A stretch of 63,956 nt of DNA, filler included, from Raillietiella orientalis (GCA_036172245.1; 3 parts of 3 records of this genome joined end to end with filler, not necessarily neighbours in it); one strand, 5' to 3'. Shown: positions 27,758 through 55,098, numbered from the whole stretch's first letter. Numbers and translations: made by a program. Notes: generated from the letters alone by a model not told the origin.

Positions 27758-27857
27758 NNNNNNNNNNNNNNNNNNNNNNNNNNNNNNNNNNNNNNNNNNN
27801 NTTAATTAATTAANNNNNNNNNNNNNNNNNNNNNNNNNNNNNNNNNNNNNNNNNNNN
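27758..27857. other. Artificial contig-joining spacer N44-TTAATTAATTAA-N44
   Basis: Exactly 100 bp; the palindromic 12-mer puts stops in all six frames; an identical spacer lies at 54999-55098. Confidence 0.98.
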
Positions 27858-30809: not shown

Positions 30810-30952
30810 GTGCAGAACTTGTGAGAACCCAAGGACTTGATAGTGGGGAAAAAAAAGTGCTAATGGTATGCATGAGATTGTAGTGTGAATGTTTTTATAG
30901 AAAAATTTTAGAAAAATAAATTTACCCCACCCCTCGTGGGACTTGGGGAAAA
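27858..30952 (+). mobile_element. L1/Tx1-like non-LTR retrotransposon, family X copy 1 (cut at contig edge; inserted in ORF1 of Y copy 1)
   Basis: ORF2 remnant and 3' UTR, AATAAA at 30915-30920, terminal hairpin CCCCA...TGGGG then AAAA; the 3' part is collinear with 42832-43930 on the other strand. Confidence 0.9.
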
Positions 30953-33606: not shown

Positions 33607-33956
33607 TTGCCACCCGGTCAAGCCAGGGCGTTTATTTCAAATTCTCTATGATTCGTGGTACGAGGCCCCACTACGGCCTGCTCAGCTGGACCTGCTAGGT
33701 CGCCGGTACATAGACCGGCGCGACTCTCCTCGGCAGCGAAAGGGGATGGGGAAAAAAGAAAAAGAAAAATAAACCATAAAAAACAAAAAGATTTGTTAGG
33801 GTTGGGGAGGGTTTACTGACCACTGGGAAGAGGGTCCGTCCTTTGAAGGTTGCCCTCGAGGTCCGTCCGTATGGTTTCTAGGTGGGGCCATCTGGTCGCA
33901 GTCCGCAGGTAGCGGACTGGCAGTACGACGGCATCCCTGTCGTGGCTCGGTCTTCT
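33607..33956 (-). mobile_element. Family Z2-like short 5'-truncated copy (ORF2 tail and 3' UTR) inserted in Z1a
   Basis: Collinear with 37834-38183; stop at 33813, AATAAA at 33636-33631, conserved terminal hairpin; about 65-70 bp of host missing at the junction. Confidence 0.85.
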
Positions 33957-36218
33957 AACGTTGCTCCTGGGCGAAGCATGGAGGCGAACCTCTTCCACCC
34001 TTCCACGTGGCAAGAGCTCAGACAAGAAAGAAGCTTGCTGCACAGCCGGAATTGCGATGCGTGCGCCGGCAAGGGGTCGGATGGTCGGGTGGGGGAGGGA
34101 GCCCTTGCGGTCGCAATCGACTTGCGGAAACCATTCGATTGCGTCTACCAGAATCTTCATCTGGAGCTTCTGGAACGCTTGGGCTTCCCGGTTTCATTAG
34201 TGGCCTATCTGCGCTCCTGCTGGCGCGACGCGCTTTTCAGCGTTTCTTTCAGCGCCCAGACCGTGCACGGCGTGCCGGTGCGGCGTACGATCCGGCAGGG
34301 AGACAGCCTGAGCCCCTTGCTCTTCAGTAACTACTTTGAATTGGTACTGAGAGAGTACAGGGGAACTCTGGCGCACCTGCCGCACGACTGTGCCGGTACG
34401 CCGGCCGTTTCAGCGTACGCGGACGACCTTCTGCTGCTGCTTCCTATGTCCACCTTGGCCTCGGCGGTCGAGGAGTTCTTCGACCTGCTGCATCGGGGAA
34501 CCGAACTTACGGTGAACGGAGCGAAGTCGTCCGTGATGCCAGTTGGTGCGGCGTGGGCAGGGCAGCAGGACTGGGTCCGTTTGAGAATCCTCACGGTGAG
34601 GTACTTCAAGTACCTTAATGTGCCGTTGGGGGACTACTCACCTGCGGAAGCGTGGTCCTGCTGCCTCCAAAAAGTAGAGACGGCGATCGGTCCGCTCCGA
34701 AGCGGCAGGTTTTTCCTGCCTGAACGGGCCGCTGTTTGGAACACGTTCGCGGCTCCAATCTTTCTCCCCCTGCTATTTGTTTGCCCTTCCACAGAGAGGA
34801 TTAAAATGGGGACAAACGACCTCCTCCGTATCGCTCTTCGGGGCAACGGGAGGGCCCGAGTTCGCTTAAAGGACTTGTGCGCTCCTCGTAGGGATGGTGG
34901 TCTGGGCCTCTCGACGCTGGAGCGGTTGAAGCGTGAGCTCCAGTTCCGAATGTCAGGAATTTTTCCAGAGTTGTTGTGCACCTGTTGGTGCGTCCCTGCA
35001 CGTCTCCTTCTCCAGCAAGCCACCGGCAAGATGGGACTGACGTCGTTTCTTGCACTGCGTCGCCGCGTCAACCGATGCGGGCTTCAGCTACGGAGGGTGG
35101 CTGGCGCTGTACCGGAAAAACCCAGGATTGGTCTCCTGTCGCCCTTTGAACGGTAGTGCCTGGTTACAGGAAACCGTTCGAACGTGGGGACAGTTCGGCA
35201 TGCAACGCTCCTAACAGGAACGAAGGTTCATGTTTGGGGGTTACAGAAGTTGCACGCTCCACGAGATCCTGGAGGATCCAAAGAATAGAGCGTGGGCAGG
35301 AAGAACCCCTCTCGCTGCTGCGCTGCCCTCCCTGATGAAAGGTCTGGAAAGCGATGTTGCGGCGAAGTGGGAGGTTACAGTAAAAATCTCCGGAAAGGAT
35401 AAGAAGATCGGAGAGTGAAAGACGGGCCAGTTAACAGACACTGCGTCCCCGAGTACGCCTCCCAATGGACTTCTGCGCTGGAGCGTGCTGCTCGATGTTC
35501 CTATTGAACATCTGAAGTGGCCCCCTGTGCTCATCAACACTTCCTCCTTCCCCTTGAAATGGCAGTTGTCTGCTCTCCTGTTGCAGCACTTGGGACTCTC
35601 CTGCAACTCCCGCCGACACCACTGGACCTGGGGAGCAGTGGACCCCAATTGCGTCAGGTGTGGGGAACGGGAGTCCCTCCCCCTCCTGCTAGTGGATTGT
35701 GTTGCCCATCTGCCCCTTTGTTTTCGCTTTGCCGCGGCCATCGGAATCCCCTGCGGCACTGAAAGCCCTCTTCGTTGCCGACGCCCTTCGGCCAGCATCC
35801 TCGTTAGCAGCTTTGTGCTGCCTACGCGGGATCGTCACCGCTTGGAGCAAGGCTACGGGAGGACAACGCGACCAGGGTGCCATACAGCCAGCCTCCCAGT
35901 TCCTGAGGAGAGCGTCGTGATGTCCCCACCTGGATCCAAGCATGCAGCAAGAGCTTTGCGGCTTCCTGCAAAGGATGCAACGGCCTTACCAGCTACAGTG
36001 ATCAGTTCCTGTACCCTCCCAGTTTTTTGTTTCGTTTTGGTTTTGTTTTTTGTTTTTCCCCCTCTCCCCTGCTGCCGTGTTGGACCGTGCCGGTCGGCGT
36101 ACTGGTGACCTGGGACGCTCTGTGTTTCTTCGTGCGTGGCTGGAGCAATGGTCCAGCCACCGCACGTCTTTGTAAATGTTTATTTTAGAATAAACTCATC
36201 GGCGAAATCCGGGTGAAA
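33957..36218 (+). mobile_element. Family Z1 copy a, part 2: RT, Zn finger and 3' UTR (3' end inserted in W)
   Basis: DLRKPFD, RQGDSLSP, YADD (34416), GGLGL, CVRCG; stop at about 36001, U-rich UTR, AATAAA at 36189-36194. Confidence 0.92.
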
Positions 36219-36920
36219 ATCGGACACCTTGCGAAGATCGCCCGGGACCTCCAAGGAACCCGGGGCTTCCTCAGGCGGAATGCAGCGACGCAGTTTTTGC
36301 AGCCGCAGATGCGGTTGCTTGGCTGTCGTGCGCCACGCGACGTTGCAGCTCGAGCCACGTGCGCAGGAAGAACAGGTTCGCCTCCATGGACCGCCCGGGA
36401 ACAGCGTAAGACTGCTCCGGACTTACCACGGATCCAGCGATCCTGCGTAGGCACGCTAGGCAGAGCCTGGGGAACAACTTGACGTCCGCATTCACCAAGG
36501 TGATGGGACGCCAGTTGCTTAAATGGCGCATGTCTTCGCCTTTCGGCAAGAGACGCACCCTTGCTGAGCGAAACGAGGCCGGTAGATTGCCCGTCTCTCG
36601 CATCAGCGCAGAAAGCCTCAGCACCAGGGGGATGAGTTTCGCCGCGATGCACAGTAAGAACTCCTCAGGCAGACCATCCTCACCTGGCGCCTTGCGCTTC
36701 TTGAGGCCCGCTATGGCGGAAGACACTTCTTCCGCCGTGATGGCGAGTCAAAAGTGACGCTTTCGTCCTCGTCGACCGCCGGGGAATCCGCCGGCAGGAG
36801 CAGCTCCGAGAGACTGCGTTCCTTCGGCTCCCTAGCATACAACTAGAAATAGTAGCGCTTTAAGAGGCGGCGAACTTCGGCCGCGCCCGAGCACTCCAGG
36901 CCCTGGTCGTCGAGCAGAAT
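36219..36920 (-). mobile_element. Element W: 5'-truncated Y-like ORF2 fragment (linker to RT motif A)
   Basis: LLDDQG, KAPGEDG, NWRPITLVN, ends at DLRKVSD; shares ERSLSELLLP.D.P.VDE with Y (about 45645) rather than with Z1/Z2. Confidence 0.85.
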
Positions 36921-37833
36921 TGGGGGGTCGGCTGTACTGGTAACGCGGCTGCCGCAACTCCTGTGGGGTCGTGTTCCTCGTCAAGTCAGCAATGGACGCT
37001 GCCGTAAAGTGCGTACGCTTTATGACGACGTTCGGGTCGGCCAGGTGATTCTCAGGTGGTTCGACTCGATCGATCTCATTGGCACAAACGTGTATGCTTC
37101 CAGCAGCAGACAGGGCTACAGCGAACGTAACGGGTTGCTGGAAACCCTGATGCGCGATTGGTTGGCGGAAACGAATGTGCGATAGGTTAACCTGATAGCG
37201 AGAGATTTCAATCTTCGCCTGTTAACAGGTGAGCCGGGAACACAATGGGAACTCGATGAACGAGTTGTGCGCCGCCATGCGTGCGCACAACTTGTTCGCA
37301 GATGGAAGGGGAATGGTCCGCAGTATCGATCGCGTCTTCCTCGACGCTGACCTGTGTACGCGTGTCGCCAAACAGGATAAGCTTGCGACGACGCTGTCGG
37401 TCCATTCCCGGTGAACTTTGGGGATGCGTCCGAGCGACAAAGGACCGCCTTCCAGGGTGCGGCATCTGCCGGGAGACTGTACGCGACTCTCAGCTGCGAA
37501 GGAACACCTTCGCGTATTCCTGAGAGACGTTACGCTTCAGAGCTTTAAGGACTGGGACCTCTTTATCGCCTCGTTTCGGGAATTCTGCGAGCAGTTCCCC
37601 CTGGACCGCCTGCCCTTCGGATTTGGCGAGGGCCTTCGCAACCTTCGGCCCTATTTACAGGCTCATCGGTACGAGAGATCCCCTAATGTCCGTCGCCAGG
37701 CCGAGTACTGCGCCAGGGCCGAACGCCAAGCCTGGCAAACCGGGTCGGCCAGCTTACTGGACGACCAGGGACGGGAATTTTCTACCGGCGGCGGTACGCC
37801 ATCTCGTGCGGAATTATTATTCCACCCTTTACG
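36921..37833 (+). mobile_element. Element V part 1 (Z2-like; outermost visible host): APE and linker
   Basis: GGRL, TNVYA, DFN, SIDRVF, WD.F; ends at RNYYSTLY. Confidence 0.85.
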
Positions 37834-40800
37834 TTGCCACTCGGTCACGACGAAGCGTTTATTGTAAACTCTTTTTACAATTTGTGCTACTAGGCCCCAC
37901 TACGGCCAACTCAACAGTACCTGCTGGGTCGCCGGTATGCATACCGGCGCGATTCTCCTCGGCAACGGAAGGGGGTGAGGAAAAACGAAAAGAAAAATGA
38001 AACAGAAAAACAAAAAGAAGTTGAAGGGCGGCGAAGGGATTACGGTCCACTGGGAGGGGTGTCCATCCTTTCTAGGATGCCCTCGAGTTCCGTCCTAATG
38101 ATACCAAGGTGGGGCCATCTAGTTGCAAGCAGCAGGTAGAGGACTGCGAGTTCGACGGCACCCCTCTCGTGGCTCGGTCTTCTGTAATCGCTCCAGCTCA
38201 TCACAATACCTCGGATGCAGCAGAGTGCTGCCAGGGCGGCAGCTGCTCGCAGGGCATCTCGCACGAAAAGAAGCCGAAAAACGTCTCTGGGCTGGCTGCC
38301 CTCCTGCAGCCGTAGGGAGGTGCCAAAAAGCTCCCACAGGGATCGGAGCGCAGCACAATTAACAAGGAGGTGGGCGAGGGTTTCCCGCTCTTCACACCTG
38401 AAGCAGGCGGGATTCACTCGACCCCTAGTCCAGTGGTTGCCGCTTGCGTTGCAGGGTAGACCCCAATGCAACAGCAGAAGTGCCGACTTCTGCCACTTCA
38501 GAGGGAGGTTCGTCGATCCAAAGAAATCCGGGAGCCACATCAGGTCATCCATCGGGATGCCGAGCAGCTCGCGTCTTCTCTTTAGACCACGCAGGAGGAC
38601 ACTTCGGGTAGTGGCATCGGCCAGCTGCGCCGTGGTCCAGCCGCTTAACTTCTTCTCTCTGCCTGCGATTCGGCAGTAGACTTGCCACCTAGGCGTGCGG
38701 CTGCTAAAGAGCGCCCTCCTCAGGAAGGGCATCGCCGTAGCTAGGGGCGTGGTCTCGGCCCACGTGCTCCGGGCAGAACATTGAAAAAAGGTCCGCAGGC
38801 TGCAGCAGGCACGGTTGTAGAATCGCAGGCAGTTGTAGTTTTATTCTCCTTGGGCATTTAACCTCGCCCACGTTCCAACAGATTCCTCCAGCCATGCGCA
38901 GGACTTGGCGGGGCTGCATGCAATCCAGACGTTCTTTTTGACTAATGTTGCCATGCGCCCGAGCAGTGGGCCGCATCTTCTTATCTTCTGGCCTGGGTGC
39001 AGAAGAAAAGACGCGAGTCCATCGCAGCGGGACACACGGCTGGCTAAAAGGCAGGCCGGAATGCACCAAAGGGTGCTGCACATCTTCGCTGCGATGGACA
39101 GGGTACGCCATCGCAGCTGAGACTCCACTCGCTCCAGCGTCAAAAGGCCGAGACCGCCATCCCGACGCGAAGCACACAAGTCCATCAATGGGAGTCGAGG
39201 CCTCCCTGTTCCCCAAAGGGCGATCCTTAGTAGGTCCTTCGTCCGATTCTTCAACTGGGACGGGACGGGGAAACAAAAAGCAGGGGGCGGAGGATGAGAG
39301 CGGCGAACGCATTCCACACCGCGGCCCTTCCCTTTAGGAGAAACCTGTCTTTCAAGAATGGGCCCATCGCCAACTCTACTTTCCGGAGACGACCAGACCA
39401 CATTGCCGAAGGGGAATAGTCGCCCAACGGCACACCAAGGTACTTTAAGCACCTCGCCGAGGGGATCCCCAAACGTATCCAGTCAGGCCGTCCGACATAC
39501 ATCGCAACAAGGGCTAGCACCGAGGACCTCGCCTTATTTACCCGTAGTCCAGTCCCGCGGTTTAGCAGATCGAAAAAATCCTCGACTGCGGCTGCCGGGG
39601 CGGACATGGGCAAAAGGAGCAGAAGTTCATCGGCGTAAGCCGTTAGGGCGGGCGTACCAAGGCACGAGCACGGCAAGGTAGGCAAACTCACCCTGTATGC
39701 TCTCAGCATCAACTCGAAGTAGGAGCTAAAGTGCAGGGGACTCCTGCTGTCGCCCTGCATGATGCTTCGTCGCACCGGCACGCCGTACACGTGTTGACTA
39801 CTTTAAGCGACGTTGATTATAGCATTGCGCCAGCAGGAGCGCAGGTAGGTTAGTAGGGAGGGTGGGAAGCCCATGCGACTCAGGAGCTCAACAAAAGCTC
39901 CTGTTCCACGCAGTCGAACCCTTTATGCAGATAGACCTCGATCTCTAGGGCCCCTTTCTCCACCCCGGGGTCCCTTTCCTGCCCGGCCAGCGCCTTAAAA
40001 GCGGGGTAGCAATTCACACGCTCTAGATCATGTTTACTGCTCTGCCAGCAAAACCATGTGCTCGCGAAGAACACGTTGGCGTCCATACCTCGCCCGCGAA
40101 CAGCGTTAGCCTGTACCGGGCTAATAACGGATTCTACCACCTGTCCTAGACGCGACGCCCACAGTCCGGCGATCAGCTGGGCGTCCGTATTTACAATGGT
40201 GATTGGACGCCAGTTGCTGAGTTCTCTGAGGTCTCCTCCCTTGGAAAGGAGCCTCACTCAGGCTGACCGAAACGAGGCGGGAACATCGCCTTCGTCTCGG
40301 ATAAGCCTTGTCAACTGAAGCACCAGGGGTGCCGACTCTGCCGCGAAGCATAGAAAAAATTCCGCGGGCAGGCCGTCCTCCCCTGGTGCTTTTCGCCTCT
40401 TGAGCCTTTTAATCACGGCGTGAATTTCGACGGTGGTAACAGGCTCCTCGAGGCTTTCCTTCTCCTCCTCCCCTTTTACCGGGGCACCATCCAGAAGCAA
40501 GCGTCAAGTAGCATCTTGTTCCAAAGGCGCCCTGGCGTAGAGGGAGGAATAATAACGCCGCACGAGGTGCCGTATTCTAGCCGGAGCCGAATGCTCCCGG
40601 CCCTGGTCGTCCAGCAAGCTGGCCGACCCCGATTGCCAGGCTTGACGTTCGGCCCGGCTCCGTACTCCGCCAGGCGACGGATGTTAAAAGTCCTTGCGTA
40701 ATGGCGAGCATACAAATACGCTTGTTCGTTACGGACCCCATCCTTAAATCCGGGGGCAGGTGGTGCAAGGGAAACTCCTTGCAGAACCAGCGGACGAAGG

Positions 40801-41474
40801 CCTTAAAAAGGTCCCAGTCACCGAGATTCCGGAGGGTGACGCCTCTCAGGAATTAGCGAAGGTGTTCGTTCGCACCTGAGAGTCGCGTCCATTCCCCAAG
40901 CAGCCGCCACGCCTTGGAAAGGGGTCCCTTGTCGCGCAGGATACCTCGATAATTAGCCGGGAATGGTCCGACAGCGTCGACGCAAGTCTCCCCCGAGTGC
41001 CGAACCCGTGGACACAGGTCAGCATGCAGCAAAAAATGATCGATGCTGATAGCCATTCCCGGGAGCTTCATCAACAAGTTGCGCGTGCGCATGACAGCGC
41101 ACAACTTGTTGGCCGTCCGTTCCTGTGCGTGGGCATCAACTGAGAGCAGGCGCAGTTTCAAATCGCCAGCAATTAGGTGCGTCCTGTGGAAGTTCGCTTC
41201 CAATTGCCAGTCGCGCCTCAGAGTTTCCAGGAACGGCTTTCGTTCCTGGTACCTGAAAGGACCGCTCGCAGCGTACACATTTGTTACGACGAGGTCGATT
41301 GCGTCGTACAATCTGAGAATCAGCTGGCGGACACGACCGGCTTTGTCGAAGCGCACGCCCTTCACGGCTGCGTCGACCGCCGGCTTCACGAAGAACGCGA
41401 CATCACAGGTTTTGCGGGAGCCCTATTGCCACACTAGCCGCCCTCCTGCGATCCTTTCGATCTCCTGCGTTCGC
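37834..41474 (-). mobile_element. Family Z2 full-length copy, 3' part: most of ORF2 and 3' UTR (disrupted; YADD mutated to YADE)
   Basis: TNVYA, AGDL, SIDH, KAPGEDG, NWRPITIVN, QGDSRSP, YADE (about 39630), YLGVPL, CFRCE..H...C; stop at 38040, AATAAA at 37863-37858. Confidence 0.92.
41460..41474. repeat. Target-site duplication of Y copy 2 (partner at 48453-48469)
   Basis: ATCTCCTG--CGTTCGC vs ATCTCCTGGGCGTTCTC; the host APE sequence rejoins across it. Confidence 0.8.
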
Positions 41475-42831
41475 ACAGTGCAGACGTCTTTTCGCGTCTC
41501 TCCGCGTCCTCGATCGAGCATCTTTGTGCTTGCATTTTCGCTCGCACTTGTGCGTTCCTTGGAAGTAAACGACGAAGCGTTTTGCAGCATGGCCCTTCTG
41601 GGAATGGTGTGAAGGAGAAAATCGTTGAATCCAATTCAATAGGAATAAAAGCGCCGCATCCACCGTGACAATTTCCTCGCCTTCGGTGAGGAGCTACACC
41701 GCCGACACCTCCCAGGAAGCAGGACCCTGCGATGCGGAGTTGCAGGCTTATGTGACATCCGGCTACATGTCCGCACTCCGTTATAAGGTCAGTGGGTTCC
41801 TTAACGGGAGGACCGGGCTTGAGCTCAACGACGAGCTCGTCCGGATCGGCGTTCGGGAGGAGGAGCTTCTTGCCATCATGCCTACGGGCAGGATGGAATA
41901 AACCAAGATACGGTTTAAGGACGCGGCACTTGTGCAGCGTCTTTTCCGTACTCCGTTGTCCATCGGTGGCAGGGAAGTCCTGCCTTTCGTGATGGACGAC
42001 TCGTTTGTCGTCCAATTGTGCGACATCGAGCCGGAAATCTCCGACCGCGATGTCGTAAGTGTGCTGGCAGAGTTCGCCACCGTGCACGCTCTGTGGAGGA
42101 GGCCAAATCCTCTGAAGGATTTCCCCTCTGTCCACATTGGACAAGCCTCCGCGCGGATCACCGTCGCGAACAGGCGTGTTGTGCACGAGCAGCTGCAGGT
42201 GAACGCACGGTCGTTCACCTGTGATTTCTAGGACAGACTCGCGCGTGCGAGCAGTGCGGCAAGGAGGGACACCGAATAAAGGAATGTCCCACCCGGAAAT
42301 GCCGCTATTGCAAAGAAACCGGGCACGAAATAAAAAAGTGCCCGGTCCTTGCAAAGAAAAAGGCAGCAGCGGAAGTTCGTCGCGTTCAAGACACGAACCC
42401 ACGAAAGGCCGCTGCCCGCAAGAAAAAGCAGTGTCTGCGGAGTCTCGGCATAAGAGCCAGGCAATACGCGACAATACAAAAGGCGTCCTCACACGCAACG
42501 CCCCAAAAGGGAGAAATCGCGGCGGGGAAGCCAATTAAAAATTGGCGCGAGGGTTCGACGCGTGCCGTGCTTGCCCTCGCTGCCGCACTGGGAAACACCT
42601 CTCCAAGCCAGGAACCGGGAAATATCCGAAGAACCTCGGTAGGAAAGGTAGGTGAGCAAGAAGATCGCCATAAGGCGAAGACTTCCAGCTCCAACCCGCT
42701 ATCCCTGCCCAAACCGGCAAACCCTCAATCCAACGTAGGGATCTCTGCGGCGCCTACGAAACCCGTAGCGAGCCGCGGCGCGCCGCGCAAAAACACGCTG
42801 CACGCAGCCGCCCCTTCACCGATTCTGCAAG
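41475..42831 (+). mobile_element. Family Y copy 2 (full length), 5' part: 5' UTR and ORF1 (disrupted)
   Basis: Starts ACAGTGCAGACGTCTTTTC, ATG at 41589; encodes near-identical peptides to 31319-32182 (MDDSFVVQLCDIEPEISDRD, RRPNPLKDFPSVHIGQASARITV). Confidence 0.9.
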
Positions 42832-43930
42832 TTTCCCGAAGTCCCACAAGGGGTGAAATAAATTTAGTTTTCAAAAATTTTTCTTGAAAAACATTCACAC
42901 TACAGTCTCATTCATACCATTTGAACTGTTTTTATCAATCCGAAGTCCATGGGTTCACAAGTTCCGCACTCATGGTGGGTTTCCTGCTGTTTGGTCCCGA
43001 ACGTCGTCTTCTGCCCTCTTCCGGATGAATCGGTACGTCGAAGCTTAGATTTTCTCACAGTTTCCAGTGCCAATTTTCCTCTTCAGGAGCCCTTGTAGGA
43101 TCTCCATCGGTGGTGCGGCTCTCCTGGCTTTCCTCATTTTCCACCACCGCACAAGTATGGCGGTTATGAAGAGGGCAATGGTCGTCCTCACCATGAGATT
43201 GTAACAGAAAACATTACCATCCCCCTCAAACATCCCCGCGAGGACTTCCATTACGGATCCGTTCGTAAGTCCGATGATCCTTTTCAGGATCAGCCAGTCA
43301 TGCAGCAATGTGGGAAACGTCAAGACGTGGAGTCTCGTGTCGTTGTCTTCACATGCCGTGCAGTCTCAATCTTCCCGTCTTCCGGTATAGTACTGCAATC
43401 GAGACCCACTCAGGATTCCTTCATGATGAAACATCAGGAGATCATCCTGGGTGCCCGGTGGAAGGTCACTTCTCCAGAGCATCGTGCCAATAGCTAGCAA
43501 GTTGATCCAAATACTTCCATAGCGATCGGCGGATTCCTTGAGGGCACTGATGTCACGGTCTTCTTCCCGAACTAATCTTCGGAGGTTTGTTTTGAATACC
43601 CTGGATCACGCGAATTCGTTGTGGTAATGCCACACCTCGCGGGTCATGTGGATAAACCTTGCTAACATCATCTCTATATACCTAAGAATACGAGTGTGAT
43701 GTAGGTACCCTCCTCGTCTCCACTCCTGGATTCGTTGTAGAGTAACACTGGACCGCTGGTGAATCCAGCTTCTCGTGTCCGGCGAGACAGGAAGCATTCA
43801 AGGGATCACCAAGATGGACTTGTCCTGCCAGAGTTCAATACTTCTCTGCACGATCTTGATTCTGTGCTTTCGCACCAGCCGATGCTTTCTGGAACAGCTT
43901 GGGTCGATTTTTATCCATTCGCCTGCTCGG
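42832..43930 (-). mobile_element. Family X copy 2, 5'-truncated (1.1 kb), flanked by a ~20-bp target-site duplication
   Basis: Collinear with about 29849-30952; flanks are CCCTTCACCGATTCTGCAAG (42812-42831) and CCCTTCACCGACTAGGCAAG (43931-43950), 17/20 identical. Confidence 0.92.
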
Positions 43931-46900
43931 CCCTTCACCGACTAGGCAAGAGAGGAGCAATCTCGCGACAGCCAAGAAGGTGACTCCGCTTCCTCCCTTT
44001 AAAGGCGTGGCGAAAGCGACGCCCCTAGCAGCAAAAACTCCGGAAGCTTCCGAGACGAAAGTCGCGAAAGCGTCCAAAAATCGTGACGGAGAATGGAAGG
44101 TTGTGGAGAGGAAAAAAGAAAAATCTCCCAAGAATGCTTCGCAACCTCCATCTGCGAACTCCTTGGAAGCAAAGAACAGCCGCGTGAACAAGAAAACACG
44201 CGCGGAGGGTTCTTCTGCCTAGGAGAAAAAGACAGCGCCGTCAACGCTCGCAAGTCCGCCTCTGTCAACGCCGAGAAGACGATTCCTGTGCGATCGGACG
44301 GATGCAAACGCACGTCGTTTGCGCAAGCATCAGACTCCGTAAAGGAGCCCGATAACGCCCCTCAACGACCAGTTACTCGCGCAGGAGCGAGCGCCCGCAG
44401 GTCTGAACCCTTAGGCGTGACACGCTCGCCGAAGAACGGCGAGTGCTCACCCCGGAACCCACAGCTTCTGCACCTTGGGAGGAGCACTCGATTACGCGCA
44501 GGACGGTGGAGGCCGGTGGCGACCGCGCACTCCAGCCCCTCGTGCTGCTAAAAGCCCGCTCGCCGGATGAGGCGAGCACCACCGCCTCGCTTTCCCAGCC
44601 GTGATGAGGGCAATCGCGTCTACTCGTCGTGTTGTTGTGCCGTGCTGGAACGTCAAAGGTCTCCAACACGACGAGAAGTGGCGATTGTAGCTAACGCTCT
44701 GCGCGCCTTCGACTTTACGCCCCTGCAGGAGATTCACAGCATCTCCGGAGACCAGGCTGCCGAAATCGAACGGCGTGCGGGCGGAATGCTACATTATAGG
44801 TGCGGCGTCGCACTTACGTGTAGCTTCGCTTTCCTCGTACGAGGAACTTTGGCGGGAGCGGTGCGCGGCGTTCGCTTCGACACGGAAGGCCGAGTGGGAC
44901 AGCTTGTACTCAAGTTGTTCGACTCGATCGACCTTGTCGTAACGAACGTGTACGCGCCGAACGGTGCTGGACGAGGGCCGAAAGGATTGAGTTCTTTGGT
45001 ACCGTTCAGAGCCAGTGGCTCACTCGTTCTCACCCTAGTGTGGCGTATGTCATTGCGGGGGACTTTAACGTCCACCTGCTGACCGAGAATAGCGCACACA
45101 AAAGGGAAAAGTTGCTAGTGGAAGAGATGTACGCGTGCGTACACGTGTGTAACTTGTTCGCTAACGACCCTGTTATGGCGACATCACCAGGACATGTATT
45201 ACTTGATGAACACTTGCTCTCTCGAGTGGTTCGGAGAGGTCCCATTCCGTCCGTGCTTTCAGACCACAACAGGCTCGAGTTCGAGTTGCTCCCGCCAGGC
45301 AAGGGGCCTCCAAACTACGTTTGGAGGATACCGGCAGACTGACTAGGGCACCCGGAGGCGGGGTAGCATCTTCTCCAGTACCTTCGCGGCTTCGCCATAA
45401 GTGAGCTCGCTGACTGGGACGATCTGAAAAGATGTGTCCGCGAGTTTTGCTGCCAATTTTCCTTGCACCAGCTTCCGCGCGTCTTTGGAGAGGGTGTAGC
45501 CAACAGAAGAGCTTTTCTGCAGGCCCGCTTCTACTCCAGGCGCGCAAACGTTGGTCGATTATCCAAATACAAGGCCAAGGCTGAGTGCCAGGTCTGGCAG
45601 TCTGGAGCGACAGTTCTGCTCGACGACCAGGACCGAGATCAACGGAACGCAGTCTCTCCGAGCTGCTTCTGCCGATTGATGCACCTTTTGTAGACGAAAA
45701 GAAACGCGCGCGTTTCAATGAGCCCTTCACGGCAGAAGAAATTTCTTCGGCCATCTCGCGGCTCAAGAGACGAAAAGCGCCAGGCGAGGATGGTCTCCCC
45801 GCAGAATTATTGCAGTGCTTTGCGGCGGAGCTCATCCCCCTGGTTCTTCAACTCTCGTCGCTGATGCGAGACGCGGGCGATGTCCCCGCCTTGTTTCGCT
45901 AGGCGAAGGTGCGTCTCCTGCCGAAAGGCGGAGATTTGCGCCAACTGAACAATTGGCGTCCGATCACCTTAGTGAATTCGGACGTCGTGTTGTTCTCGAA
46001 ACTTTGGGTGGCGCGGATGGGGAGTATCGCGGAGTCTTTGGTAAGTCCGGAGCAGACCTACGCTGTTCCTGGGTGGTACATGGACTCGAACCGCTTATTC
46101 ATCCGCACATGGCTGCAATTGCAGCATCGCATAGCGATGGATCGTCGTGCGGAAGCGACGCCTTCGATCTCTCACCCACTGAGGCGCGGGTCGCAAAGGG
46201 AAACCTCGGAAGCCTTGGCGGTTGCAATAGATTTGCACGAAACTTTCGATTGCGTGAACCAAAAGCTTCTTCTTGAGCTCTTGTAACGTCTGGGCCTCTC
46301 GGCATCCCTGTTGGCTTACTTGCGCACCTGCTGGCGACACGCGATTACATCCATTGTTTTCAGTGGCTGTCACGTGTACGGCGTGCCGGTTAGGCGAGGA
46401 ATTAGGCAGGGCGATAGCTTAAGCCCGCTGCTCTTTAGCATCTATTTTGAAATGATGCTGGAGGCTTACAGGGTGACGCTAGCCAACCTGCCGAGCTCCT
46501 GTCCAGGTACGCCGGCCGTGGCAGCCTATGCCGGTGACCTGCTTCTCCTGTTGCCCGTGTCCACCAAGGCGGCGTTGCTTGAAGATTTCTTGAAGTTGAT
46601 CCGTCGAGTTGCGGGCGTGAGCGTCAACAGGAGGGAGAGCATGGTTGTTTCGGTTGGAGCGACGTGGGAGGGACAGTCCGACTGGATGCGCCAGGAGATC
46701 CCAACGGACAGGTACCTAAGGTACCTTGGCGTGCCGTTGGGCGATTTCTGCATCTCAGAAGCGTATTCGGACTGCCTTCGGAAGGCAGAGCATGCACTTG
46801 GCTTGTTCAGAGGAGGCGAGTTCGTCTTGGCGGAACGGGCCAGCATCTGGAACACCTTCGTTGCCCCCCTCCTCCGCTCCCTGTGTTTTGTTTGTCCACA

Positions 46901-48452
46901 CCCCCCAGGAAGTCTAAGTCTTGGCGCAGAGCCTTCTACGCAAAACGTTGTGGGGCGCTGCAAGGTCCCGCGTAACACTTAAAGACTTGGTGGCTCCACG
47001 TCAGGATGTAGGCTTGGGCATCCTAGAATTAAAAATCATCGAGCTGCAAGTGCAGTTTAGAATGCTGCTGCTTTCTGCCAAGCTGTGATGTACGCCGTGG
47101 TGCTTACCCGCACGACTTATACTAAGGAGCTGCACGGGAAGCGAGGGACTGCTATCGTTGCTGTCGCACTTTCGGCACACCAGAATAGGTTTGTCTTCCC
47201 GCTGAGGCAGCTGTCCTCATTGCTGGAAGCCCAATGTTGATCTCCTGCCTCCCCATGAACATTAATTCATGACGGCAGGAATCTTTTTCCATCGTGGGCA
47301 GCTTCCGAAGGAACGTGCCCGGAAGGTCTTCGGCGCATGCGACTTCTCCTTAGTCATCCAATGGACGAAGTCATGCAGGACAAGAAGATGTCGGATCGTC
47401 TGGCCGCCACACCGCTCGCCGCAGCGCTGTCTGCCCTAAGGGCAATCAACGACAGTTGCCTGTTGGCGAAATGGGAGTTATCCAGCACAATAGCGGGAGT
47501 CTGTAAGCTCCTCGGCTGCTAGACGACAAAGTAGCTGGTGGAAACTGCCACTCCTCGTAATCGAGAGAAGGGCTTGCTTCGGTGGAGTGAACATTTAAGT
47601 GTACCCCCCGAAGAGATAGTTGTCCCCCCGTTTGTTTGCACAGCTCCGTGTTCCCCTTAAAGTGGAAACAAGATGTGCTGCTCTTTTTACACTGGGGCTC
47701 TCACTGTAATCGGCAGCGAAGCATCGTTTCCGGGGGAGCTGCTTTGCCAAACTGTTTAAGGTGCGGTGATATCGAGTCTTTTTCGCACCTCTTGATGGAC
47801 TGCGGTGACCTCCGTGAACTGTGGCGAAGGCTAATTTCAGCCATTCTGCCGCAGGGAGGCACTGCCATTGATGTGCTGCGGCGCTTCTTCAGGAGGAATG
47901 GATTTTCGGTAGGCGCGATTGTCGCAACCATGTGTTGCATTCGCGGACTCGTGAAGGCTCGCTACGCCCTGGAGTTGTCAGCGCAGCGAAGGAAGGCTCA
48001 CCGGTTTGCAGCAGAATCCATGAAAAACGCTGCTAGGTGGTCTCATCTTCGTGACGAGGTCAAAAAGACATCGCGGGCATCCACCACCGGTTTACAGGCT
48101 TTTAGGAACTGCTAAATCCCGTTACCACTTCGTCCTGAAGCCCACATATACCCCTTCCCTGCTCGCTTTGCTAAAATACCGGTGCCATTACTATTATAAC
48201 GGTGAGAACCAGAGCGATCCCAAAGACTTTTGTCTCCGCGTCCCCCATTGATTTCATTTTATTTTGTTTTTGTTTGTTTGTTTTCCCAGTTCCCACAAAC
48301 TGATCTGTGTAATTCTGGCCTGCTTGCCAGCAATATTCTTTTAATAGTTGTGCCGTTGTCGGTTGGGGGCATGGTCCCCAACTGGTTTATTTCATATATT
48401 TATTTCTATTGTATTTGTATGAAATAAACGCCCCGGCGTGACCGGGTGAGAA
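43931..48452 (+). mobile_element. Family Y copy 2, 3' part: ORF1 C-terminus, complete but disrupted ORF2, 3' UTR
   Basis: CWNVKGL (about 44644), LQEIH, TNVYAP, AGDFN, SDHN, KAPGEDG, DLHETFD, RQGDSLSP, YAGD (46527), YLGVPL, CLRCG..H...C; stop at 48115, AATAAA at 48423-48428. Confidence 0.92.
48423..48452 (+). terminator. 3'-terminal signal: AATAAA followed by 24 nt containing a CCCGG-loop-CCGGG hairpin (also at 36189-36218 +, 33607-33636 -, 37834-37863 -, 51320-51349 -)
   Basis: Five copies from three families share the motif and spacing; none is followed by a poly(A) tail. Confidence 0.8.
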
Positions 48453-50684
48453 ATCTCCTGGGCGTTCTCTGCGGTGATCACGTCGATATCCTGCAGGAGA
48501 GCCAGGTCGAAGTCACGCGAGGTGGTGGCCGTGTCTCGTCTGTTGCCTTCGTCACGCAGCCCGTTCACGTTCCAACAGGACACGCTTAATTGACCGCGAC
48601 AGGTGAGCAAGGGTGTTACTCCTGGGAAAGTGGCAATGGGGCTCCCGCCACCCGGTCGGGCGGGACGGATGGAGGAATGGGATCACCGCGCACCGGTTCT
48701 CCCTCCTCCATGGGGGCCGATTCTTTTGCGAACCGCAATCGTTGAAGGGGGCGGGTTTCACGCACCTGCTCCCCCTCTTCCATGGGGGCCAATTTGTCGG
48801 CTGCGCTGGACGGCAAGGGGGAAGCGGTTGTCAAATGTCTGCTCCTTCTCTTCCATGGTGATCTCCTCAGGAGGTCCCACCGTTGGAAGAGGGCGGCAAT
48901 TACTTACCTTCTTCCCCTCCTCCTTGGGGGTGCTCAGCTGCTCTGTAGCAAAGGGTGGAAAAATCGCTCTCTACGTTCCCACTCTGCCGGCTTTCCCCTC
49001 GGCTGCCGGTGCTTCCCCCTCCTTCTTCGTCGGGATGCGCCTCTTCGGATTCTTTGACTTCCGTCCAGTCTTTTTCGAAGGCGCCTCCGCGGAGGAGGAC
49101 GCACTCCCGGCATCCAAGTCGTGGTCGCCTGTCGAAAGTGCCCTGGTCGCTGCCGGCCTTCGCAAGAACTTTCGTGCGCCGTTCTCACGCTCCGCGAGTT
49201 CGGCTGGAGCTCTTCTGCCGCCTGTTAGATGGCGGCGTCCTCGATTGCGGCGAGCTCCTCGCTCGGCTCTCCCTCTTTTTGCACTGAGGGTTCACCCTGC
49301 GCGGTCGTGACTTCGTCGTCAACGAGGTGGGGATATCTCTCCGGTGGCGTCTCGGGGACCAACACACGCTCCAAAGCGACCGAACATTCGCGGAGCAACG
49401 CGCGGCGTTGTCTCCTATTTAAGGGAGATGTCGCAGATTCCGGTGTGGTGCCTTCTGTGTTCTTTATTTTTTTCGTTTTAGTCTCCGCCTTATGCCAGCC
49501 CTTGCTCTCTCTATCGTCGTCGCGAGTATCCTTGACCGGCGCTTGCTGCACGGGTTCGGGCACTGGCTGTGGGTTCCGCCTCTCGGGTGTCTCCTTAGGC
49601 TTTTCCGTTCGCATCACGCGTTTCCCTTTGGCTTCATTCAAGGCAGGGGTTGCCCGGGTTTCGGGTTTAGAACACAGCTTCCGCAGGTGTCCCTTTTCGC
49701 CGCAGTAGAAGCACTGGATGTGGGGGCATCTTTTTTTAAGGTGCCCTGTGGCATTCCAGTGTCCACAGTACTTGGGCTTACCCACGTACCAGACGTCGAC
49801 GACCTGGTTGCCGAATTCTAGTTTGTGGGGAAGCCCATCGTTTTCGTTGACGGTCAAACGCGCTGCAGCCATGCGACTGAACAGTCTTCAGTAACTTATG
49901 AAGAAGTTTGGCTTGGTCCATACCGCGTGCAACGTACCGAATTTACTTAATTTCTCCTTCACGCCGGTTTTTGACATGCGGAGGGATACTCCCGTAAGAT
50001 GCGCTCCCACAGAGCGATCCTCGCTTACAGGGAAAACCTTTCTGGCTTCCAGCATGAGAGGGGTATTCAGCAGGCGTTCAGCCAGGCTTGCATCTCTGCA
50101 AGTGAGCTATACCCGCTTGCCCCCACTGAGCACTGAAAGGCGTTCCAGGTCCTCTTCTTTCACGTCTATCCGCTGCAATTCCCTCTCGAAATCGCGGCCG
50201 TTATTTTCAACGAACAGATCTCCTACCTTGTAAATCAAGGAGGGCTTGTATCCTTGTTCCAGGTAGGCGCGCTGTTCTGCTAAGGCTGCAGGAGATGGCG
50301 TTGCAGCCACGGAGCTCTAGGTTTTCGTGGATGAAGCAGACGGATCCAAATACGCGGTTGCCCCCTTTTTCAAGGGGGCACTTGCGGCGTTTTGCACCAA
50401 GGCGGTTGCCCCTTTTTTTCAAGGAATCGGTACCTCTTGTTTCCGGAGGGGTGGTTGCCTCCTTTTTCAAGAAGGTGGTTGCCCTCTCCTCCGTGGGGGC
50501 GGTTGCCCCCACCTATGTGGGTTGGGGAGAGGAATCATCCTCTTCCCCGCCAACTTACATCGCGGTGTCCTCAAGTATTCCTGCCATTTGACACCGGCGA
50601 TGAACCACTCACTAACACACTAAAAAAAAAGAATGAAACTTCGAAAACTCGCTCGGAAGAAGAGCAGAAAAAACACGTGCGCAC
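48453..50684 (-). mobile_element. Family Z2 full-length copy, 5' part: 5' UTR, ORF1 (50587 to 48616, disrupted) and APE N-terminus
   Basis: 5' end GTGCGCACGTGTTTTT; knuckles CGHWNATGHLKKRC (degenerate) and CFYCGEKGHLRKLC; SCWNVNGL..LLQD..ENAQEI, continuing at 41474. Confidence 0.88.
50353..50510 (-). repeat. Degenerate 24-bp (8-codon) tandem repeat in the N-terminus of Z2 ORF1
   Basis: GGCAACC recurs in 24-bp register over about 6.5 units; alternate units end in TTGAAAAA (LKK). Confidence 0.75.
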
Positions 50685-51319
50685 GCTCCCTTTATGCCAG
50701 GGCGCTCCCAGACCACGGTGCCTCTTGGCGCTTGCTTCCGGACGGTGCCCCGGCAATAGGGGAAAAGGAGTCGTTAAGCCTTGACGAGCCTTTTACCACC
50801 CGCGAAATTCTCGCCGCTATCAAAAGGCTCAAAAAACGTAAAGATCCAGGGGAGGACGGCTTGCCCGCGAAGTTCTTTCAGAGCTTCGCGAAAGAGCTGG
50901 CACTCCTGCTGCTTCAGTTGACAAGGTTGAGCCGTGACGAAGGCGATGTTCCCGAGTCGTTTCGGTCAGCCAGAGTGAGAATCCTTCCGAAACGAGGAGG
51001 CATCAGAGACTTCAAGAACAATCGTCCGATCACGATTGTGAACACGGACGCCAAGTTGGTTCCCGGGCTGTGGGCTTCGTGTCTGGGGCAGGTGGCAGAA
51101 TGCATAATTAGCCCGGAGCAGACTTATGCTGTTCCCGGACAAAGCATGGATGCCATCCTCTTCTTTGCAAGCACATGGCTTCACACGCGGAGGAGGTAGA
51201 AAGTAAGGAACGGTGATATTTGCAAAATAACTTAAAGGCGGTCTGTAAGACAGGAAAAGCAATCTAAGGGTTAAAATGGGGCCCTGGCGCTCGCAAACGA
51301 TCTACATAAGGCGTTCGAT
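50685..51319 (+). mobile_element. Element V part 2: linker to RT motif A
   Basis: Resumes at SLYARAL where part 1 stopped (STLY); KDPGEDG, RPITIVNTD; ends at DLHKAFD. The putative TSD is weak (9/12 match). Confidence 0.82.
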
Positions 51320-54300
51320 TTTCACCCGGATTTCGCCGGGACGTTTATTATGAAATAAACATTTACAAAGACATGCAGTGGCTGGACCATTGCTCCAGCC
51401 ACGCACGAAGAAACACAGAGCCTGCCGGATCACCGGTTTGCAGACCAGTACGGTCCACCATGGCAGCAGGGAGAAGGGGGAAAAACAAAAAAACAAAACA
51501 AAAAAAAGAAAAGAGATGTTGGGAGGGTAAGGGAAGGGATCACATTTGCTGGTGGGGCCGTTGCATCCATTGCAGGATGCCGGCAAGCTCCATCGGTATT
51601 CCTGGATCCAGGTGGGGCCATCGGGACGCCCTCCTCAAAAACTGGGAGGCTGGCTCGATGGCATTCAGGTCGTGTGGTCCTCCCGTAGCCTTGCTCCAGG
51701 CGGCTACGATCCCGCGAAGGCAGCACAGGGCTGCTAACAAGGCCGCTGGCCGAAGGGCGTCGGCAACGAAGAGGGCTTTAAGAACGTCCCTGGAATTGCC
51801 GAAGGGGAATCCGATAGCAGAAGCAAAGCGGAACCAAAGGGGCCGAAGGGCAACACAATCCACTAGCAGGTGGGGGAGGGACTCCCGTTCCCACACCTGA
51901 CGCAATTGGGGACCACTGCTCCCCAGGTCCAGTGGTGTCGGCGGGCGTTGCAAGGGAGTCCCCAGTGCTGCAACAGGAATGCCGAATCCTGCCATTTTAA
52001 GGAAAGGGTGGAGGTGTTCATTAGAACCGGGGCCCACTTCAAACGTTCAATGGGAACGTCGAGCAGCGCGCCCCAGCGTAGAAGTCCATTGGGAGGCGTA
52101 CTCGCGGTCGCAGCGTATGTTAACTGGCCCGTCTTCCACTCTCCTATCTTGTTCTCCTTTCCGGAGATTGTTACTTTAAACTCCCACTTCGCCGCAACAT
52201 CGCTGTCCAGATCTTCCATCAGGGAGGGCAGCGTAGCAGCGAGGAAGGTTCTTCCTGCCCACGCTCTCTTCTTTGGATCCTCCAGGTTCTCGCGGCGCGT
52301 GCAACTTCTGTAACCCCCAAACAGGAACCGTCGTTCCTGTTGAAAGCGTTGCATGCCGAACTGTCCCCACGTTCGATCCGTTTCCAGCAACCAGGCACTA
52401 CCGTTCCAAGGGACACAGGTGACCAATCCTGGGTATTATAGTGACAGCTCAGCCTCCCAACGCAGCTGAAGTCCGCATCGGTTAACGCGGCGACGGAGTG
52501 CAAGAAACGACGACAGTCCCGTCTTGCCGGTGGCTTGCTGGAGAAGGAGACGTGCAGGGACGCACAAACAGGTGAACCACAACTCTGGAACGAGTGCCGA
52601 CAAGCGTAACTGAAGCTGAAGCTCCAGCCGCTCCAGCGTCAGGAGGCCCAGACCACCATCCCGACGAGGAGCGCACAAGTCCTTTAAGCGGACTCGGGCC
52701 CTCCCGTTGCCCAAAAGGGCGATACGGAGGAAGTCCTTTGTCCGCTTTTTAATTCTCTCTGTGAGGGGCAAACAAAATGCAAGGAACGGAAAAGAGGAGC
52801 AGCGAACGTGTTCAAAACCGCGGCCCGTTCAGGCAGGAAAAACCTGCCGCCTCGGAACGGGAAAATCGCCGTCTCTACTTTTTGGAGGCAGCCAGACCAC
52901 GCTTCCGCAGGGGAGTGGTCCCCCAACGGCACACCAAGGGACTTGAAGTGCCTCACCGTGGGGATCCCCAAACGGACCCAGTACTGCTGCCCTGCCCACG
53001 CCGCACCAACTGACATCACGGACGACTTCGCCCTGTTCACCGTAAGTCCGGTTCCCCGATGCAGCAAGTCGAAGAACTCCTCGACCGCCGCAGCCGGAGT
53101 GGACATAGAGAACAGCAGCAGAAGGTCGTCCGCGTATGCTGAAACGGCCGGCGTCCCGGCACAGTCGTGCGGCAGGTGCGCCAGAGTTCCCCTGTACGCT
53201 CTCAGTACCAGCTCAAAGTAGGTACTGAAGAGCAAGTGGCTCAGGCTGTATCCCTGCCGGATCCCACGCCGCACCGGCATGCCGTGCACGGTGTGCCCGC
53301 AGAAGGTAACATTGATGAGCGCGTCGCGCTAGCAGGAGCGCAAATAGACCACTAATGAGGCTGGGAAGCCCATGCGTTCCAGAAGCTCCAGAAGGAGATT
53401 CTGGTCGACGCAATCGAATGCTTTCCGCAAGTCGATTGCGACCGCAAAGGCTCCCTCCCCCACCCGACCATTTAACCCCCTGCCGGCGCACGCACCGGAA
53501 TTCCGGATGCGCACCAAGCTCCTTTCATGTTAGAGCTCTAGCCAGGTGGAAGCGTGGAGCAGGTTCGCCTCCATGCTTCCCCCGGGAACAGCATATATCT
53601 GTACCGGGCAGATGAAGATGTTGGAAACCCGTCACAGACGCTCTGCCCAAACCTTAGCCAGCAGCCTGGCGTCCGCATTCACTATTGTGATAAGACGCCA
53701 GTTGTTCATGCTCCTCAGATCTCCTCTTTTAGGGAGGAGCCGCACCTTTGCCGAAGGAAACGAGGAGGGAACGTCACCTGTTTCGCGTATCAGCAAGGTG
53801 AGTTGCTGTACCAGGGGGGTAAGCTACGCCGCAAAAGTTCGATAAAACTTCGCGGGCACGCCGTCCTCCCCTGGAGCCTTTTGCCTCTTGAGCTTTCCGA
53901 TGGACGAGAGGATGTCGTCCATCATAAAAGTCTCGTCGAGGGTCATTCTCTGCTTCTCCCCGATCGTTGGAGCGCCTTCCGGAAGCAAGAGTCGTGAGAC
54001 GTTCCTCTCCGGAGGTGCCCTGGCATACAGGGAGGAGTAGTAACTTCGCAGCAAACCGCGGATTTGGGCAGGTGCCGAGTGCTCCTGGCCCCGATCGTCC
54101 AGTAAGCTGGCCGATCCGGACTACCAGGCTTGCCTTTCGGCTCCCGCTTCGTATTCTGCCAGCCTGCGGATGTCGGGCGTCCTGGCGTGACGACGGGCCT
54201 GCAGGAAGGCTCGTTCGTTACGGACCCCGTTCCCAAAACCCGTAGGTAAGCAGAGCAGAGGGAATTGGTCGCAGAACTCCTGGACTGACCGCTTGAAGCG

Positions 54301-54998
54301 GTCCCAATCCTGGAGTGTCCGCAGCCTGAAGCTCCGTATTAACGTGCGGAGATGTTCCGCCGCGTCCGGCAGCTTCAGCCAGTCCCCTGGGAGACGCCAC
54401 GCTGACAAGGGTATGCCCCTGTCGAGCGGATAGATCTCGAGGACTATCGGGCGTTGTTCGGATAGCTCGCAAGGTAACTTGCCACGCCTGCCCACGCAAG
54501 GGCACAGGTGCTCGTCAAGAAACACGTGGTCAATGCTGTCTTTCATCCCCGGTGCACTGGCCAACAAATTACAGGTGTGCACCGCCATGCGCACCTCGTT
54601 GACCAGGTCACGCTCGCGATTCTGCCCATCTGGTTTCAGGCTAACGTTGAAATCGCCTGCAAGCAGATGCGCATTCCGCACGCCTGCTTCGGTCAGCCAG
54701 TCTCGCCGGAGGGCAAGGAAAAACTCTTTCCTCGCCCTTCTGTTCATCAGGTCCGCGCCGCTCGGTGCGTACACGTTCGTGACGATCAGATCGATCGAGT
54801 CGGTCCACCTGAGAGTCAGCTGGACGACACGACCGTGATCGTCGAACCGCACGCCCTGAGCCGCGGCCTCGACGTCTTGCCGAAGCAGGTAGGCGTCACC
54901 GCAACTTTTCACTCTCCCACACCTGTACCATAGCCGCCCTACGGAGATCCGTTCGAACTCATGCGCTTGTTCTGCAGAGATTACGTGGATCTCCTGTA
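51320..54998 (-). mobile_element. Family Z1 copy b: nearly complete disrupted ORF2 and 3' UTR (cut at contig edge; inserted in V)
   Basis: QEIH, TNVYAP, AGDFN, SIDHVF, DLRKAFD, RQGYSLS, YADD (53136-53125), CVRC; stop at 51540, AATAAA at 51349-51344. Confidence 0.93.
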
Positions 54999-55098
54999 NN
55001 NNNNNNNNNNNNNNNNNNNNNNNNNNNNNNNNNNNNNNNNNNTTAATTAATTAANNNNNNNNNNNNNNNNNNNNNNNNNNNNNNNNNNNNNNNNNNNN
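54999..55098. other. Artificial contig-joining spacer N44-TTAATTAATTAA-N44
   Basis: Identical to the spacer at 27758-27857. Confidence 0.98.

Follow-up and report, generated by a model that had tools for sequence, protein, structure and literature searches.

How do retrotransposons come to be stacked inside one another at the same few codons? The question is raised by a 27-kb contig of Raillietiella orientalis (GCA_036172245.1), part of a 63,956-base stretch of joined genome records (hereafter the window, meaning the whole stretch analysed), in which long interspersed nuclear elements (LINEs), that is, retrotransposons without long terminal repeats (LTRs; non-LTR retrotransposons), are nested within each other. 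Copies of one lineage, Y, begin in the apurinic/apyrimidinic endonuclease (APE) codons of other LINEs. One Y insertion is complete and its anatomy can be read from end to end, a second, independent 5' junction falls at the same position in a host from a different clade, and close to these is a third. We consider it probable that Y is a target-specific APE-type LINE that nicks the sense strand of its host after ...GAGAT^CGAA and inserts antisense into the APE of other LINEs; the sequence comparisons support the view that Y favours a place in the APE some 10 codons past the catalytic QE.

The complete event is the insertion of Y2 into Z2, and its parts are as follows.

41476..48452, plus strand: Y2, full-length Y copy of ~6.98 kb, with duplication, CCHC and RVT_1 matches, and an APE colinear with that of Z1b
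41460..41472, no strand assigned: left copy of the target-site duplication, ATCTCCTGCGTTC, 13 nt, read from the sequence
48453..48467, no strand assigned: right copy of the target-site duplication, ATCTCCTGGGCGTTC, 15 nt, in frame with the upstream host part
37834..41472, minus strand: 3' part of Z2, the host of Y2, from APE codons ERIAGGRL through the reverse transcriptase (RT) to the 3' end ...CCGAGTGGCAA
48453..50687, minus strand: 5' part of Z2, with 5' untranslated region (UTR), open reading frame 1 (ORF1) with CCHC knuckle, and APE N terminus CWNVNGL...LLQDIDVITAENAQEI

On the minus strand, the right flank of Y2 reads ...CWNVNGL...DFDLALLQDIDVITAENAQE(I), i.e., ...CWNVNGLRDEGNRRDTATTSRDFDLALLQDIDVITAENAQE(I) in frame-0 translation, and the left flank resumes the same frame with ERIAGGRLVW..., followed by the remaining APE, the RT, and the 3' end at 37834. 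With Y2 removed, Z2 reads ...LLQDIDVITAENAQEI|ERIAGGRL; Z1b (QEIHVISAEQAHEF|ERISVGRL) and the APE of Y2 itself (QEIHSISGDQAAEI|ERRAGGML) are colinear with it. The 3' part of Z2 matches the Z1b APE at 41% amino acid identity over 263 amino acids (tblastn) and carries an RVT_1 match at 39254-39802. Because the right duplication copy is in frame, it has the original length, and the left copy must have lost 2 nt; three extra bases, GCA (41473-41475), stand between the left copy and Y2.

The body of Y2 runs from CAGTGCAGACG to CCGGGTGAGAA, with the 3' tail ...AATAAACGCCCCGGCGTGACCGGGTGAGAA and no poly(A), and comprises a 5' UTR, an ORF1 with CCHC knuckles, a Y-specific stretch of ~1.6 kb, the APE, the RT, and the 3' tail. 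Its ORF2 carries frameshifts, for example between 44968 and 44971, and the copy is therefore dead. The Y-specific stretch (42900-44550 in Y2; 29802-30850 in Y1) lies between the ORF1 knuckles and the APE, and nothing in the Z families corresponds to it; Pfam returned no hit, and in a comparison of Y1 with Y2 no frame was specifically conserved, identity being ~64 to 78% in each of the six tblastx frames. The long antisense ORFs in the 5' 2.4 kb of Y had suggested the 3' part of a minus-strand element, a candidate that was rejected since a plus-strand reading agrees with the CCHC hits, the duplication, and the termini.

A second Y copy, Y1, meets its host Z1 at the equivalent codons, and two homologous sites in the window are uninterrupted.

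29847..32296, minus strand: Y1, 5' portion (2.45 kb) of a further Y copy, with an intact 289-amino-acid ORF1 and CCHC
32297..36218, plus strand: Z1, the host of Y1, from the duplication-equivalent ACGAGCGTAAGAAAT at 32297-32311 to the 3' end ...CCGGGTGAAA; carries T1
51320..54998, minus strand: Z1b, sister copy of Z1 with an empty Y site, ACAAGCGCATGAGTT|CGAACGG at 54970-54949
44752..44766, plus strand: homologous site in Y2's own APE, uninterrupted, CAGGCTGCCGAAAT|CGAACGG

Y1 has the same 5' terminus as Y2, CAGTGCAGACG, located at 32295 and running downward, with 32296 as an extra or ambiguous C, and it matches the first 2.45 kb of Y2 at 1997 of 2442 positions (81.8%). Written in the host sense, the Y1/Z1 junction is ...GTCTGCACTG|CACGAGCGTAAGAAAT TAAACGG... 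and the Y2/Z2 junction is ...GTCTGCACTG|TGCGAACGCAGGAGAT CGAAAGG...; both lie 32 nt upstream of the conserved GGGCGGCTA in Z1 and Z2. Given the 2-nt gap in the left duplication copy of Y2, the coincidence of the two junctions is good to within 2 nt. In Z1b, ACAAGCGCATGAGTT is uninterrupted at 54970-54956, and the contig end cuts this element at 54998, 28 nt upstream. Altogether, the window holds five APE sites, two of which are filled exactly, one by a truncated copy nearby, and two empty; all three Y-clade copies in the window abut the APE region. Away from its host, ~2.45 kb from its 5' end, Y1 adjoins the RT C-terminal region of another LINE, A, at ~29802-29847. Since neither side of this join has an element terminus, it has the look of a rearrangement or deletion and not of a junction made by insertion.

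The third case is a fragment, W, beside a host, V, that is itself interrupted.

36219..36920, minus strand: W, 5'-truncated Y-clade fragment, its 3' side interrupted by Z1
36921..37833, plus strand: first part of V, the host of W, from APE codons GGRL; interrupted by Z2 at 37833/37834
50688..51319, plus strand: second part of V (X), which resumes after Z2 and ends at Z1b, directly past the GAT codon in RT motif DLHKAFD

W is 69.3% identical to Y2 and 56 to 59% identical to the other elements, groups with Y2 in the tree, and begins at approximately Y2 position 45608. Compared to Y2, it carries a 68-bp insertion (36823-36890) just inside its truncated 5' end. The W/V junction at 36919-36921 lies 11 to 12 nt downstream, in the host sense, of the nick that we infer for Y. 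This arrangement is compatible with the same nick and a small target deletion upon a 5'-truncated insertion, which it does not prove. Such deletions occur with L1.

A sequence-only reading had proposed three Y events on the AQEI codons that follow the catalytic QE motif. Two of these stand as exact junctions in hosts of different clades, whereas the third is 11 to 12 nt away: W does meet V at GGRL, as proposed, near the site rather than at it and without a duplication copy. The split of the Z2 APE at LLQDIDVITAENAQEI|ERI was borne out by flanks that are in frame and colinear with the APEs of Z1b and Y2, and excision of Y2 leaves a Z2 that reads as one APE; its duplication, put at ~17 bp, is instead 13 nt on one side and 15 nt on the other, with a 2-nt gap. 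The abutment of Y1 on the equivalent Z1 codons at 32297 and the uninterrupted Z1b site near 54970 were likewise recovered. The three hosts are indeed different elements, with nucleotide identities of 485/809 (60.0%) for Z1-Z2, 58.7% for Z1-V, and 67.6% for Z2-V.

The families that serve as hosts have sites of their own. Z1 in W (3' end at 36218/9) and Z1b in V (3' end at 51320) are both antisense and directly follow the GAT of the RT motif KAFD; their hosts read ...GDLRKVSD| and ...NDLHKAFD|, with homologous flanks ATCGGACACCTT and ATCGAACGCCTT (36190-36240 and 51297-51348). The shared position indicates that a second family of the island shows targeting, at its own site, and two of the seven KAFD sites in the window are filled, the five other copies continuing into CV. 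Z2 (37834-~50687, with Y2 nested in it) lies antisense in V at YYSSLYA, codons located between the APE and the RT; its duplication, CCCTTTAYG, is ~9 nt long (37825-37833 and 50688-50696); because it splits V, V resumes at 50688. One further fragment belongs here.

33606-33960, minus strand: T1, 5'-truncated 3' fragment of a Z2-like element, 355 bp, 78.8% identical to the Z2 tail

Unlike Z2 at its own site, T1 lies antisense within Z1 RT codons ...NADSKSLV. In all seven resolved nestings, the inserted element is antisense to its host: Y1 in Z1, T1 in Z1, Z1 in W, W in V, Z2 in V, Y2 in Z2, and Z1b in V. It is an even call whether the island is a guild of related LINE lineages, each endonuclease adapted to another conserved coding motif of the others, with Y directed to APE A-E/Q-I/F|E-R, Z1 to RT KAFD, and Z2 at YYSSLYA, always antisense.

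The 3' ends were compared as well. A regular-expression search found five, which have AATAAAC in common, together with a short stem of GC pairs and the sequence GTG(A/G); none has poly(A). The base triplet after the 3' junction is ATC for Y2, Z1, and Z1b and AAC for Z2 and T1, so that the nick core ATC/GAT, which the sequence-only reading had suggested to be shared, applies to the former three, whereas the Z2 and T1 junctions read GTT^ in the host sense. Judged by their sequences, what the junctions have in common is a primer strand ending in T beside an element tail ending in A. The tail of Y2 (48385-48452) is predicted to fold well, into a long AU hairpin that includes AAUAAAC and a short GC hairpin (z, -4.3; none of 200 shuffles as good), while the Z1 and Z2 tails gave small hairpin versions only, which were not significant (z, 0.40 and 0.71). 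Folding of the five 3' ends together predicts a GC hairpin of 5 bp shared by all, but its compensatory pairs number only one and its covariation term is 0.04, which does not establish it.

To what class do these elements belong? A profile built from six in-frame APE pieces of the window had the human LINE-1 endonuclease as its best solved match (8sp5, E 1.7e-4; 1vyb, E 2.1e-4), the match to 8sp5 spanning profile positions 12-187. The pieces carry the motifs WNVNGL, LLQD/LQE (Z2 and Y2), VTNVYAP, AGDFN, SIDH, and LSDH/SDH, and the Y target codons align with approximately residue 52 of the L1 endonuclease (L1-EN), ~10 codons past the catalytic QE. The Z1 RT matched Bombyx R2 (1.7e-9) and human L1 ORF2p (4e-6) in the PDB. 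A Pfam scan of 238 stop-to-stop translations of at least 70 amino acids returned no endonuclease family at E <=1e-3; two of four pieces gave no hit in a relaxed Pfam scan for endonucleases, and a single-sequence PDB search with the APE found nothing meaningful. The hallmarks of LINE insertion are present as the 13/15-nt duplication of Y2, the CCCTTTAYG duplication of Z2, and the 5' truncation of W and T1. With an RT, an endonuclease of the endonuclease/exonuclease/phosphatase (EEP) fold, duplications, and truncation, the elements are, as far as sequence can tell, APE-type non-LTR retrotransposons.

We infer the position of the nick on the host sense strand, the reading of sequence by the endonuclease, and the order of the cuts, and the following course is proposed. 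The Y endonuclease would nick the host sense strand after ...GA(G/A)(A/T)T, in Z2 at ...CAGGAGAT^CGAAAGG. The freed 3' end, ending in T, would then prime reverse transcription at the terminal A's of a Y RNA that presumably ends in a small GC hairpin plus GAGAA, leaving an integrated copy without poly(A), and cutting of the other strand ~15 nt away would yield the 15-nt duplication. On this view, Y would integrate antisense, by target-primed reverse transcription, into a single short stretch of the sequence that encodes the endonuclease in other LINE families. Because this target lies in the conserved codons A-E/Q-I/F-E-R, it would persist in diverged LINE families.

Several observations weigh against this reading. 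The exact junctions number two only, and both ends are present for just one of them; the 3' half of Y1 is missing, and the contig does not reach the 3' junction of either Y1 or W. In Y2, the left duplication copy is 2 nt short and is followed by three unexplained bases, so that the claim of a same nucleotide holds within 2 nt only. The 15 nt of Z1 beside Y1 match Z1b at 10 of 15 positions, compared to 88.7% overall. Two near-consensus APE sites, that of Z1b and Y2's own GAAAT|CGAACGG, are empty. The W/V junction is on the other side of the inferred nick, V has no copy of the 15-nt duplication, and placing W at the Y site needs the added assumption of a small target deletion. As for the endonuclease itself, the relaxed Pfam matches are below curated cut-offs (Z1b, Exo_endo_phos, E 1.2e-3; a Y2 piece, Exo_endo_phos_2, 6e-3), and an AlphaFold2 model of the Z1b APE from a six-row alignment was unusable (mean predicted local distance difference test score, 37.2; predicted template modelling score, 0.23).

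Could the coincidence of Y1 and Y2 go back to one event, or to none? One blastn alignment (29847-33599 against 43932-40177, 75.5%) crosses both junctions, as a single ancestral Y-in-Z insertion, copied by segmental duplication or array homogenisation and followed by drift, might leave it. Insert and host, which should then have diverged equally, have not done so (Y1-Y2, 81.8%; Z1-Z2, 60.0%), and a single duplicated nest is thereby excluded; moreover, Z1b is far closer to Z1 than Z2 is, yet its site is empty. Z1 and Z1b are identical at 737 of 831 positions (88.7%), and their differences fall evenly on the codon positions (29/31/34), which looks like neutral decay of two copies from one master. 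The Z1b-Z2 differences (93/86/148) show a third-position excess, indicating that these lineages diverged while coding and that host divergence arose in active lineages, not in place. The ORF1 differences between Y1 and Y2 are also skewed (48/41/76; chi-square 12.5, 2 df, p ~0.002), so that part of this divergence arose under coding constraint, in a test for which the sense frame is indistinguishable from one antisense frame. A tree of a 600-nt ORF2 interval groups the copies as (W,Y2), (Z1,Z1b), and (Z2,V), with supports of 0.998 to 1.0. Thus, we find descent from one copied nest scarcely credible. An assembly artefact, in which the contig joins reads of different LINE copies at similar sequences, is just as hard to believe: the contig is all repeats and both of its ends are inside elements, but mis-joins unite similar sequences in the same orientation, and here unrelated sequences of opposite orientation meet at element termini with a duplication.

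Coincidence, or a weak, ordinary-L1-like sequence preference among many random nestings, draws on the smallness of the sample, on the two empty near-consensus sites, and on the case having been picked by the sequence-only reading after it was seen. Two junctions within 2 nt, antisense in hosts of different clades, are indeed a sample far below the hundreds available for known families. Under a uniform model with a host of ~6.9 kb and two orientations, however, a second 5' junction would fall within 2 nt of the first, equally oriented, with a probability of ~4e-4, and a third would fall within 30 nt with one of ~4e-3. In addition, a second family targets another site, and orientation is antisense throughout. 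Ordinary L1 is expected to use an A/T-rich target, and the Y target, which is not of that type, counts against coincidence, which we regard as very improbable. The last alternative accepts that targeting is real and denies that the endonuclease reads DNA sequence; Y RNA read through into the flank of its donor could anneal to the homologous target, which is the main alternative to recognition by the endonuclease, or LINE coding DNA could contain a DNA or chromatin hotspot for any nick. The tail, as integrated, lacks poly(A) and its end is precise, the 2-nt gap between the duplication copies of Y2 could mean that one copy was RNA templated, and a role for co-transcribed target sequence has been discussed for R2-type elements; passages of Kojima 2015 (PMC4494074) discuss co-transcription with the target as strengthening target-specific integration. 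Nonetheless, RNA annealing alone does not make the first nick, and the Z1 and Z2 targets differ at several bases of the 15-nt duplication, so that a donor flank would pair imperfectly. A general hotspot, for its part, leaves unexplained that each family has its own site (Y at APE codons, Z1 after KAFD, and Z2 at YYSSLYA). We therefore hold targeting of this kind to be unlikely, and prefer site choice by the Y endonuclease.

The window as a whole consists of three pieces joined by N44-TTAATTAATTAA-N44 spacers, with N runs at 27758-27857 and 54999-55098.

2-27757: piece 1, 278-bp satellite
27858-54998: piece 2, the 27-kb contig, nested non-LTR retrotransposons only, GC ~55 to 58%
55099-63956: piece 3, 277-bp satellite
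27858-~29800, plus strand: A, distant LINE at the start of piece 2, 30 to 50% amino acid identity to the other elements

The spacers mark separate contigs, and linkage of either satellite to the LINE island is therefore not established. Nesting in the 27-kb contig reaches four levels, a cluster of nested copies as described for Zepp and ZeppL. RVT_1 (PF00078) matches were found at 28573-29297 (plus), 33882-35153 (plus), 39254-39802 (minus), 46287-46979 (plus), and 52687-53328 (minus); those of A (46.9 bits), Z1 (46.2 bits, E 5.7e-12), and Z1b (35.8 bits) exceed the cut-off, and those of Y2 (24.4 bits, E 2.7e-5) and Z2 (19.6 bits) are below it. zf-CCHC knuckles occur at 31322-32188 (minus, E 1.5e-5), 42225-42884 (plus, E 8.5e-7), and 49228-49887 (minus, E 1.4e-5). 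Rfam gave no matches inside the island.

Close relatives proved to be few. Among 1.8 billion representatives, two RT relatives exceeded 60% identity and all others were at or below 37%; a word-index search with the RT returned one protein, P0001, at 63% identity. The taxonomic assignment of the RT relatives is no finer than "Eukaryota." A scan for related loci with the RT alignment yielded 22 loci, all at most 36% identical, and an exact scan of metagenome contigs for the shared Y 5'-end pattern gave no matches. The hints as to clade are the best matches to L1-EN, a weak zf-RVT match (E 4.7e-4), and distant matches annotated like plant L1-type elements.

Which known systems come close? Target-specific LINEs are known for ribosomal DNA (rDNA), telomeres, small-RNA genes, microsatellites, and a few DNA and LTR transposons. 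In the Tx1 group, as passages of PMC4494074 describe it, Tx1 inserts in the piggyBac-type Tx1D of Xenopus and Tx1-Mar in Mariner-N4_AMi, and Tx1-8_Crp and Tx1-4_AMi target particular LTR retrotransposons. Like Y, these are, by those passages, APE-type LINEs recurring at a fixed position and orientation in another mobile element. Unlike theirs, the Y target is made up of conserved endonuclease codons of other LINEs of the same broad group, and the host families of Y have fixed sites of their own in LINE genes; the likeness is one of target behaviour. The R1 clade (R1Bm in 28S rDNA, and the telomeric TRAS and SART) resembles Y, in the passages of PMC1919474, PMC2868851, and PMC7265360, in its sequence-specific APE, precise 3' junctions, and defined duplication. 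Its targets are multicopy genes and repeats of the host, in contrast to the retrotransposons targeted by Y. The APE profile search matched L1 endonuclease and ExoIII-type sequences, with no R1- or TRAS-named chain among 17 sequences at E <=1.

With regard to nesting, the closest parallel is Zepp, which carries a poly(A) tail, whereas the island elements have none. Excerpts of Blanc et al. 2012 (PMC3446292) describe one nested Zepp cluster per chromosome in Coccomyxa subellipsoidea C-169, and the nested clusters of Zepp and ZeppL are said there and in parts of PMC8226300 to target existing copies. As portrayed in those texts, Zepp and ZeppL-1 (Chlamydomonas) share with the island GC-rich nested L1-type LINEs with a Gag-like ORF1 and the RT in ORF2. 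Zepp nesting is described there for one family and leads to arrays of 3' ends, whereas the island has several families; unlike what we find here, these partial descriptions give neither nucleotide-precise sites in coding motifs, nor a multifamily set of sites, nor an antisense rule. In the full-text literature covered, which did not extend to Higashiyama 1997 on Zepp junctions, no account was found of LINE lineages whose fixed sites are coding motifs of other LINEs; besides Zepp/ZeppL nesting and the Tx1-group targets, the nearest were the regional preferences of nested plant LTR elements treated in PMC6911290.

A LINE lineage that homes to the conserved coding sequence of rival LINEs would represent a new ecological strategy for a retrotransposon, with a landing site that is renewable, harmless to the cell, and disabling to a competitor. 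Targeting of the Y type would also explain the growth of pure-LINE islands, which are of the kind proposed as green-algal centromeres. If the guild is real, the elements hyperparasitise one another, Russian-doll nests grow without touching host genes, and the APE fold has been retargeted repeatedly to new 15- to 20-nt sites within one lineage. If, furthermore, specificity lies in the endonuclease, the guild would constitute a natural series of close APE nucleases that differ in their long recognition sites, a resource for studying how APE chooses its targets and perhaps for engineering that choice.

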